This document shows positions 21,042 to 22,002 of a stretch of DNA of 64,000 bases, in pieces. Under the pieces are notes generated by a model that saw only the letters and a program-made list of their open reading frames with translations, was not told the DNA's origin and ran no database searches. Numbering within the stretch: the first letter of the stretch is position 1; each line of letters starts with the position of its first letter. The position numbers and the translations under genes are program-made. The stretch comes from Escherichia coli (GTDB lineage Bacteria; Pseudomonadota; Gammaproteobacteria; Enterobacterales; Enterobacteriaceae). Where the stretch lies: NCBI RefSeq assembly GCF_013315695.1, contig NZ_CP054353.1. One strand, written 5' to 3'.

Positions 21042-21564
21042 TTACTATGACCCGTAATCGTGCTTAACGTTACCATCCTATGATGCGATTAAAAAAACTC
21101 ACCGTCGCGCTGATGATTGACGTCAATGCTATCGGATGATACCGGGGGGTTCCGGAAGGAATTCCTTGTTTCCCGAACTGTTACCCACAAAATTATAACG
21201 ACGAGCAAGTAAAGACCGGTTGGTGGCAGCATTGACCGGTCTGTGATGGATGTTAAATTTCACCTTAAATCCTGGTGCTGTTAGGATGCTGACATTTTTC
21301 GGGTACACCATTCAGATTATGCAAATAAAGATCCAATCAAAAAATAAATATCCCTGAATATAATATATTTATAGCACCCATATCTCATCCTGGGCGATAA
21401 CTAAACCATTTTTGATTAACAAATGAAACAACTGCAACGTTCTTATTATTTCTGGAAAACGTCTCGCAAAAACAAAACAGCATGCAAAAATCCGCTTTTT
21501 TAAATGATTTTTCGGCGTAATTTTCGCACATACATTAATGAGTCATATATGTAAGGTATTGGTA

Positions 21565-21783
21565 ATGGCGATGAATACGGTTTTTCTTCATTTATCAGAA
21601 GAGGCAATTAAACGGCTGAACAAGCTTAGGGGCTGGCGTAAGGTTTCACGATCTGCAATTTTACGCGAAGCGGTAGAGCAATATCTGGAACGTCAGCAAT
21701 TCCCGGTGCGTAAAGCAAAGGGAGGCAGGCAAAAGGGGGAGACAGTGGGTGTCGATGATCAGTGTAAGGAGCATAAGGAATGA
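21565..21783 (+). CDS. yiiE: ribbon-helix-helix (CopG-like) small protein YiiE
   Basis: [45 protein letters not shown]...; start could alternatively be the ATG at 21538. Confidence 0.75.
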   Translation: MAMNTVFLHLSEEAIKRLNKLRGWRKVSRSAILREAVEQYLERQQFPVRKAKGGRQKGETVGVDDQCKEHKE

Positions 21784-22002
21784 CAAAAAATTTTTTATTC
21801 TTGAATATAAAAAACCAGATGCCCTTATTCTGGTATTAATACAAGGTTGTTTTACTTGAACTTATAATAACTGCAACTGTTACATCATATCTGGAAAACG
21901 CCTCGCAAAAATAAAAAATGATGCGTAAATGCGCTTTCTTTAAAGATTCGGCAAGGGTACTTTTCTCTCCATAGATTCAAAAATGATATTGGCGAGATAT
22001 TT

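Follow-up and report, generated by a model that had tools for sequence, protein, structure and literature searches.

The yiiE-yiiF locus of Escherichia coli: a probable decayed and partly duplicated vapBC module with a candidate CRP-S-type promoter

The genes yiiE and yiiF of Escherichia coli, which code for two small ribbon-helix-helix (RHH) proteins, were analyzed here in a stretch of 64,000 nucleotides from contig NZ_CP054353.1 (the window), where each of them is preceded by a copy of the same upstream block. As suggested by our comparative analysis, the locus is quite probably a decayed, partly amplified chromosomal vapBC toxin-antitoxin (TA) module with a distal promoter of the CRP-S type. 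The analysis demonstrated the duplication of a promoter-plus-gene unit, the vapBC ancestry of the locus, fragments of a vapC gene downstream of yiiF, the match of the upstream block to the CRP-S motif together with its conserved spacing, the pattern of selection on the two genes and the existence of chimeric alleles.

The original prediction, made from the letters of the window, described yiiE and yiiF as a tandem duplication that includes their upstream regulatory DNA, and this description is fully borne out. Local alignment of 21320-21560 with 21780-22002 gave a score of 81, against 19.6 +/- 2.4 for 500 shuffles taken as the null (z = 25.5; 0 of 500 reached 81), a similarity far beyond chance; the strings quoted in the prediction were located at 21430-21495 and 21869-21934. 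The repeat search revealed a direct repeat of 83 nt on the plus strand upstream of the genes (21427-21509 before yiiE and 21866-21948 before yiiF, 77% identity, spacing 439) and a second one of 60 nt within them (21636-21695 and 22092-22151, 75% identity, spacing 456). Both products are RHH proteins (Pfam RHH_1), as had been proposed, and share 41% identity (BLASTP E 2e-12), and the homologous stretch is colinear, beginning about 45 nt upstream of the conserved core and running as far as the stop codons. The units of roughly 440-456 bp, each a promoter plus a gene, thus lie colinear and head-to-tail with a period of 439-456 bp and span regulatory as well as coding DNA, which is the arrangement of a tandem segmental duplication. 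Taken together, the upstream alignment, the repeats, the colinear homology and the protein identity show that the promoter-plus-gene duplication is real. Furthermore, a DNA profile derived from 22 loci with vapBC in genera other than Escherichia, run on the window, matched the yiiF unit at 21888-22253 (E 6e-76) and the yiiE unit at 21447-21783 (E 1e-28). A third vapB copy was sought in 20872-21345, where no significant alignment with either unit or with the outgroups was obtained (z < 1).

The yiiF gene (22003-22245, plus strand) encodes an 80-aa protein that matches RHH_1/RHH_3 and the structure of Shigella YiiF (PDB 2K5J, E 5e-42) and aligns end to end with VapB of Klebsiella pneumoniae (7BY2_A, E 1e-27). 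Chain A of 7BY2 and the RHH protein that K. pneumoniae ATCC 13883 encodes are identical, and the open reading frame (ORF) downstream of that vapB gene corresponds to chain B, a PIN-domain protein named 'Ribonuclease VapC'. In relatives, an RHH gene of 80-82 aa overlaps a PIN gene of 122-135 aa and directly adjoins fdhE. Such a pair stands beside fdhE in Citrobacter, Salmonella enterica diarizonae and Pseudocitrobacter, and it was present in about 30 of the 40 comparison loci retrieved from one-genome-per-species contigs of other genera, Klebsiella, Kluyvera, Trabulsiella, Lelliottia, Kosakonia, Cedecea and Franconibacter among them. The RHH-PIN pairs at fdhE and the full-length VapB alignment point to yiiF as the syntenic ortholog of vapB from a vapBC module, and hence to an orphan VapB antitoxin gene. 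YiiF possesses both parts expected of an antitoxin, the RHH DNA-binding domain and the toxin-binding C-terminal region. The product of yiiE (21565-21783, plus strand; 72 aa, Pfam RHH_1 E 1.2e-11), a diverged vapB paralog, possesses only the RHH domain, and its degenerate tail is without the conserved W, Y, L and W residues.

No intact, co-oriented PIN toxin gene was found beside yiiF in the window, only fragments of one, so that the earlier statement that no partner toxin ORF is evident holds for an intact gene and fails for its remains. The first remnant, at 22245-22264 (plus strand, ATGGCAAAAA..TGATACCAAT), overlaps the stop codon of yiiF, was recognized by alignment with vapBC of five species and is weak when taken alone (z 3.2). 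The second, at 22417-22479 (plus strand), covers codons 9-30 with the catalytic Asp codon changed; it aligns with nt 25-89 of an Escherichia sp. vapC (z = 15.1) and gave a colinear nhmmer match. The third comprises the 3' end of vapC together with a hairpin shared with the convergent fdhE (22475-22562, plus strand; nhmmer E 8.7e-10, profile positions 747-849), in which the vapC fragment proper is 22475-22537 and the stop codon occupies 22535-22537. These pieces are kept apart by a repetitive extragenic palindromic (REP) repeat or bacterial interspersed mosaic element (BIME) at 22290-22400 (no strand assigned), recognized from its sequence and from weak Rfam matches to ES036 and naRNA4, and by an internal deletion. 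The toxin gene thus persists as wreckage and is not simply absent. The BIME insert is bordered by similar stretches of 9-10 nt, 22255-22264 (TGATACCAAT) and 22414-22425 (CATACCCAT), both of which match vapC nt 22-31 and may be a duplication created at insertion. Candidate vapC remnants after and before yiiE were suggestive in the multiple alignment, proved not significant (z 1.8 and -0.6) and were dropped. In relatives, the gap between fabY and fdhE is a hot spot of TA modules (loci L008-L012, L002 and L060 of our comparison set), with higBA, parDE, RelE-like/helix-turn-helix (NadS) and vapBC in varied combinations.

The upstream block was examined in an alignment of the 190 nt preceding 29 vapB genes, yiiE and yiiF (31 sequences), which revealed three conserved islands amid otherwise unconserved sequence. 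Island 1, TTCTGGAAAG-NNN-CTCGCAAAA, reads as TGCGA-N6-TTCCA on the minus strand, exactly the motif that Sinha et al. defined for CRP-S sites of E. coli, as quoted by Sondberg et al. (PMC6728893); the motif is asymmetric and works in either orientation as a class I site (PMC6728893). The candidate sites lie on the minus strand at 21450-21471 for yiiE (plus strand TTCTGGAAAACGTCTCGCAAAA) and at 21889-21910 for yiiF (plus strand ATCTGGAAAACGCCTCGCAAAA), and both are exact matches, 10 of 10, to the 22-bp core T4G5C6G7A8-N6-T15T16C17C18A19. Two occurrences of this core exist in the 64-kb window, where 0.24 are expected, and both are at the copies. The core is kept in 27 of the 31 upstream regions, with a variable centre (positions 11-13). 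Half-sites of enterobacterial CRP-S sites carry C or G, never T, at position 6 according to Cameron and Redfield (PMC1635313), and the same 27 of 31 count applies here, with C6 (TGCGA) in one half and G6 (TGGAA) in the other.

Upstream sequences of K-12 sxy, ppdD, chpS, higB and hicA served as positive controls. The site of the sxy promoter Psxy (ATTTGCGAGGCTCTTTCCGAAA) is identical to the vapB element at 17 of 22 positions and lies in the same orientation; the ppdD site is likewise 17/22 identical to the element, and 13 nt of the yiiF site (AACGCCTCGCAAA) recur unchanged upstream of ppdD. Related half-site pairs were also observed upstream of chpS, higB and hicA, and chpSB, higBA and hicAB have been reported as Sxy-induced or CRP-S-controlled (review, PMC11951105). 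A strict scan for TGCGA-N6-TTCCA upstream of K-12 hicA, ppdD and yedK gave no match at up to two mismatches, and relaxed inspection of the same regions revealed related yet different half-site combinations. Upstream of K-12 chpS we observed a palindromic TGCGA-N6-TCGCA site (TTTTGCGAGACGACTCGCATTC; L205 4274-4295), 166 nt upstream, and a second site, TCCGA-N6-TTCCA, 52 nt further downstream. The yiiE site of E. whittamii has a CGGAA half, as in Psxy.

Island 2 is a TAnnnT hexamer with the invariant A2 and T6 that are the signature of a sigma-70 -10 element, without a -35 element. In yiiE it is TAATTT (21518-21523, plus strand), aligned with the TAnnnT of the 29 vapBC loci and beginning 68 nt after the start of the CRP-S-like site; in yiiF it is TACTTT (21958-21963, plus strand), beginning 69 nt after the start of the site. 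These hexamers would belong to the putative distal promoters P1 of the two genes. In all 31 sequences the hexamer follows island 1 at a distance of 68-70 nt, over an intervening sequence that is not conserved. The centre of the site is accordingly predicted at -68.5 to -70.5 relative to the start predicted from the TAnnnT hexamer; class I CRP-S sites occur near -62, -72, -83 or -93 from the transcription start. P1, made up of the candidate CRP-S site and the -10-like hexamer in a putative class I layout without a -35 element, would fire only when cyclic AMP (cAMP)-CRP acts with the competence co-activator Sxy.

Island 3 (TGATATACTGGAGGTATAT) lies immediately upstream of the start codon and combines an extended -10-like TGnTATACT, a Shine-Dalgarno sequence and the inverted repeat ATATAC/GTATAT, with a direct repeat (TGATATA) in some genera. 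This proximal element at the ribosome-binding site is probably the operator of the antitoxin and a proximal promoter; the mechanism that we propose would assign it operator function and possibly that of a second promoter. Three observations on it agree with what this mechanism would predict. It is intact in Escherichia sp. (L061), which has retained vapC, and degraded in E. coli yiiF to TGATATTGGCGAGATATTT (21984-22002, plus strand). In yiiE another sequence, well conserved across the genus, takes the place of the island: the promoter-proximal region at 21533-21564 (plus strand), which aligns with TGATATACTGGAGGTATAT and contains the ribosome-binding site and the diverged equivalent of the operator, is nearly invariant across 12 Escherichia yiiE loci. 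The different proximal element of yiiE fits the different residues of the DNA-reading beta-strand of YiiE (MNTVFLHL, and MGRILLNL in YiiF). What is said here on CRP and Sxy binding, on transcription starts, on the part played by the proximal element and on a present function of YiiE is deduced from sequence.

Neither terminator-like sites nor strong sigma-70 consensus promoters were found in 21200-22450, and a search for known RNA families gave no match in the block and only weak REP-related matches downstream of it. The small ORFs in the block (21423-21503 on the plus strand, 21385-21531 and 21885-22046 on the minus strand) were rejected as coding: the one on the plus strand has no start codon and meets an early stop in the yiiF copy, and the single-base indels (spacings of 68, 69 and 70 nt) and the lack of conservation between the islands do not fit a coding sequence. 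A further element of 22 nt, CATTWWTGAGTAATAWATGWAA, occurs twice in K-12, 127 bp apart (L003 3133-3154 and 3260-3281), where it brackets the CRP-S-like site and the promoter of yiiE; the pair are candidate operators of YiiE, and the element is less similar in the window strain.

Along with the vapB genes, the element of island 1 was detected in front of other genes. It stands upstream of a RelE-like/NadS pair beside a hydrolase gene with a LexA box (UTI89, E. albertii, Pseudocitrobacter), upstream of a RelB/ParE-like pair between nrdG and cybC, in opposite orientation, and upstream of SRAP (yedK-like) genes adjoining umuDC. Its presence before unrelated genes argues against an operator specific for YiiE and YiiF and fits the site of a shared regulator. 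A search of plasmids with the element returned one mis-assigned chromosomal fragment and chance matches of 24 nt only, and scans of viral and metagenome sequences gave mostly chance matches in unrelated GC contexts, from which the enterobacterial ones were kept as contexts. The divergent alpha/beta-hydrolase gene and the CRP-S-like element are separated by a perfect LexA-type box (CTGTATGAATATACAG; L005 2815-2830, with equivalents in L028 and L002) in Citrobacter, S. diarizonae, UTI89 and E. albertii, so that an SOS site and a CRP-S site are adjacent. In contigs with yedK-like genes, umuDC and dinI, three or four GGGGCA repeats follow the element (L068 12212-12330; L069 713-893; L071 9495-9640), and GTAAAY precedes it at a fixed distance of 20 nt.

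These contexts bear directly on the suggestion of the original prediction that the two regulators possibly share operators, in other words that YiiE and/or YiiF bind the block as a common operator in RHH autoregulation. RHH antitoxins usually do autoregulate, and among the non-coding stretches of the two units the block is conserved best. Nevertheless, its core is a single asymmetric element of 22 bp with a variable centre and not a set of tandem or inverted short boxes, it precedes genes of unrelated regulators (a NadS-type helix-turn-helix antitoxin and RelB) and of a SRAP peptidase, and one and the same block precedes the genes of YiiE and YiiF despite the different beta-strands of these proteins. 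The Shine-Dalgarno sequence and start codon offer a better operator candidate (ATATAC/GTATAT), which has diverged between the copies. The conserved 22-bp core within the repeat matches CRP-S, and the probable RHH operator lies elsewhere. The block is thus probably not the own operator of YiiE or YiiF, and we consider the common-operator explanation improbable.

Slightly less probable still is the explanation that the block is a recombination or cassette-boundary site for TA cassettes in the fabY-fdhE hot spot and has no regulatory role. In genomes with several modules each module is preceded by one copy, and in Pseudocitrobacter two copies have an identical centre; the motif also stands beside GGGGCA repeats in some prophage-region contigs. 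In E. whittamii (L051, about 2760-2995) the hydrolase-side region with the LexA box is joined to the yiiE promoter exactly at the element, a junction that suggests a deletion through recombination of two element copies and counts in favour of a cassette boundary. Such deletions can be explained by ordinary homologous recombination between repeated copies, however, and the locus has no associated recombinase gene. Substitutions have moreover saturated the flanks of the element in single-copy loci of about 27 species, where the element itself is kept; it also stands at a fixed spacing to the -10-like hexamer and matches a known transcription-factor site exactly, all of which speaks against a boundary site.

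Exchange of sequence between the copies was considered as another source of the upstream likeness. A stretch of 17 nt (GAAGCGGTAGAGCAATA, encoding REAVEQY) is identical in yiiE (21667-21683, plus strand) and yiiF (22123-22139), and chimeric protein clusters of both kinds exist, YiiE N-terminus with YiiF C-terminus and the reciprocal, with their joints at the REAVEQYL segment, so that this stretch is the crossover zone of the chimeric alleles and the copies do exchange sequence. That the upstream likeness reflects nothing more than a recent duplication or gene conversion and is functionless is nonetheless very unlikely, given that the proteins are just 41% identical and that the core is conserved in the single-copy loci of distant genera (Franconibacter, Klebsiella, Citrobacter), where conversion cannot act. 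Least credible of all is a sigma-54 promoter, as which island 1 was first read because of its GG-N10-GC spacing (TGGAAAACGYCTCGCA, with a centre that varies between species): in the window 56 instances of the minimal pattern stand against an expected 47, a weight matrix from 149 low-stringency sigma-54 chromatin immunoprecipitation sequencing (ChIP-seq) sites gives the block 4.1-6.6 bits, against a median of 12.6 for bound sites (99-100% of which score higher), and neither ChIP-seq, even at low stringency, nor genomic SELEX (gSELEX) for RpoN has a peak at yiiE or yiiF, so that weight matrix, ChIP-seq and gSELEX all led to its rejection.

The order of events under a decayed vapBC module can be outlined from Escherichia sp. 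contigs L061 and L062, which carry fabY, yiiE, vapB, an intact vapC and then fdhE, and from E. albertii, in which a single gene with a YiiE N-terminus and a VapB C-terminus is followed by an intact vapC. The coexistence of yiiE and vapB with an intact toxin gene indicates that the duplication is older than the toxin loss and took place while the vapBC module was still intact. The ancestral unit beside fdhE would have consisted of a distal promoter, a proximal operator/promoter, vapB for the RHH antitoxin and vapC for the PIN ribonuclease. In the Escherichia lineage, its promoter-plus-vapB part (about 440-456 bp) would have been duplicated in tandem upstream of the intact module, giving rise to yiiE, and in E. 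coli vapC would later have been destroyed by BIME insertion and internal deletion, leaving yiiF as an orphan antitoxin gene.

Furthermore, the two copies experience different selection. Codons 1-52 of yiiE, the RHH domain, showed a synonymous polymorphism (pS) of 0.129 and a nonsynonymous polymorphism (pN) of 0.0017 among 10 distinct alleles (pN/pS 0.01), with a ratio of 0.58 in the tail of 20 codons. In 7 alleles of yiiF the ratio was 0.85 overall, 0.70 in the RHH domain and 1.28 in the tail. Alignment of 31 YiiE cluster representatives likewise revealed an invariant N-terminus and a variable tail. The DNA-binding domain of yiiE is hence under strong purifying selection, and yiiF evolves almost neutrally and looks like a slowly decaying orphan, which means that the less antitoxin-like copy is the selected one, and for DNA binding only. 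The two genes had been pictured as a pair of solitary regulators; they are not equivalent in this respect, and the constrained DNA-binding domain together with the conserved promoter argues that yiiE is retained for a function and is not decaying.

Several observations weigh against the interpretation of the locus as a vapBC remnant driven by CRP-S-type promoters. The left half-site TGGAA has A and not G at position 7, a base contacted by CRP, and the yiiE site has TGGAT as its weak half in E. fergusonii and B2 strains. In the RelB/ParE-like context only about 47 bp separate the site from the predicted start, a distance not canonical for class I, and the class I placement at yiiE, yiiF and vapB hinges on the assumed -10 hexamer. 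The selection estimates were obtained from small samples, those 10 yiiE and 7 yiiF alleles, with recombination ignored. yiiE responds to SlyA overexpression and sits in H-NS-bound DNA (PMC5797941), so that regulation other than CRP-S acts on it. No paper in the literature searched links yiiE or yiiF to Sxy, and Sxy induction of the two genes is a prediction; a Sxy link of yiiE/yiiF, which is part of the regulatory result, may also be already published.

YiiE has lost the toxin-binding tail and kept a constrained RHH domain and a candidate CRP-S promoter, on which we base a tentative proposal: YiiE might be a domesticated antitoxin that acts as a transcription factor in the Sxy/CRP (competence, nucleotide-starvation) regulon, and several unrelated TA families, both in the hot spot between fabY and fdhE and at other places in Enterobacteriaceae, might carry the same portable CRP-S element. 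This is a possibility that we hold with much less confidence than the vapBC origin of the locus. If it is true, chromosomal TA modules would have a general trigger in Sxy, and rearrangements at the yiiE/yiiF locus would be driven by the repeated sites as well.

The gene order in the window is dtd, fabY (yiiD), a 617-aa ORF, yiiE, yiiF and the REP/BIME repeat, followed by fdhE-fdoIHG on the opposite strand, and the two-copy yiiE-yiiF-fdhE arrangement is also present in K-12. At least 80% of the length of the 1-kb segment occurs in 4138 of 5426 complete E. coli genomes and a related segment in 5424 of 5426; isolate AF3 of E. coli (NZ_OZ547117.1) matches 21300-22300 at 100% identity. In the protein search, YiiE-type proteins turned up solely in Escherichia and Shigella. 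Strains vary at the locus: UTI89 and 23CRST026 have yiiE only, the ST131 strain JJ1886 carries two minus-strand genes (a 246-aa hypothetical and a DUF6708 protein) between yiiE and yiiF (L004 1235-2848), and in strain W21 yiiF is truncated by an IS1 element. The continuous 617-aa ORF at 19018-20871 (plus strand), between fabY and yiiE, is split in the RefSeq annotation into 'hypothetical protein, partial' and 'transposase', and K-12 retains just about its first 20 codons. No assignment of a function to yiiE or yiiF was found in the searchable literature, where the genes are otherwise mentioned in expression surveys. An RpoS gSELEX peak assigned to 'yiiD > yiiE' lies, by coordinate conversion, about 740 bp upstream of yiiE and away from the block, and was set aside.

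With vapBC remains, CRP-S-like sites and a constrained YiiE domain, the conserved E. coli genes yiiE and yiiF gain a testable context, which points to the conditions of their expression (Sxy induction, high cAMP) and to a search for YiiE targets. A widespread enterobacterial VapBC family, which includes the solved Klebsiella pair, would moreover join the short list of competence-linked TA loci. The finding belongs to two kinds already described, the relic of an orphan antitoxin and the TA promoter of CRP-S type. Among the closest known systems is VapBC of Klebsiella pneumoniae (PDB 7BY2/7BY3) with its syntenic orthologs, which occupies the same genomic slot and carries the same three islands; in contrast to it, the E. 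coli window has no intact PIN gene, has the antitoxin-plus-promoter part twice and has a degraded proximal element at yiiF. Orphan antitoxins that result from TA decay are similar in that the RHH gene is kept, the toxin gene is fragmented and yiiF is near-neutral; they differ from the present locus, whose second copy, yiiE, has retained the constraint on its DNA-binding domain and a conserved promoter.

TA operons with two promoters have precedents in hicAB and in toxTA of H. influenzae, and in hicAB the promoter P1 carries a CRP-S site and is Sxy-activated, while the antitoxin represses P2, which lies at the start codon (PMC6957337, PMC11594946). E. coli hicAB shares with the present locus a distal CRP-S-type site and a proximal -10/operator at the start codon, and the sxy promoter's own CRP-S site lies at a similar distance from the start codon as the vapB element and shares its orientation relative to the gene; experimental tests exist for the Psxy site (PMC6728893), whereas the yiiE and yiiF sites, like the yiiE, yiiF and vapBC promoters set beside those of hicAB, are predicted from sequence. 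The differences from hicAB are that the protein families are unrelated, that the toxin gene comes first in hicAB, and that the region upstream of hicA has two weak-type halves and not TGCGA with TTCCA.

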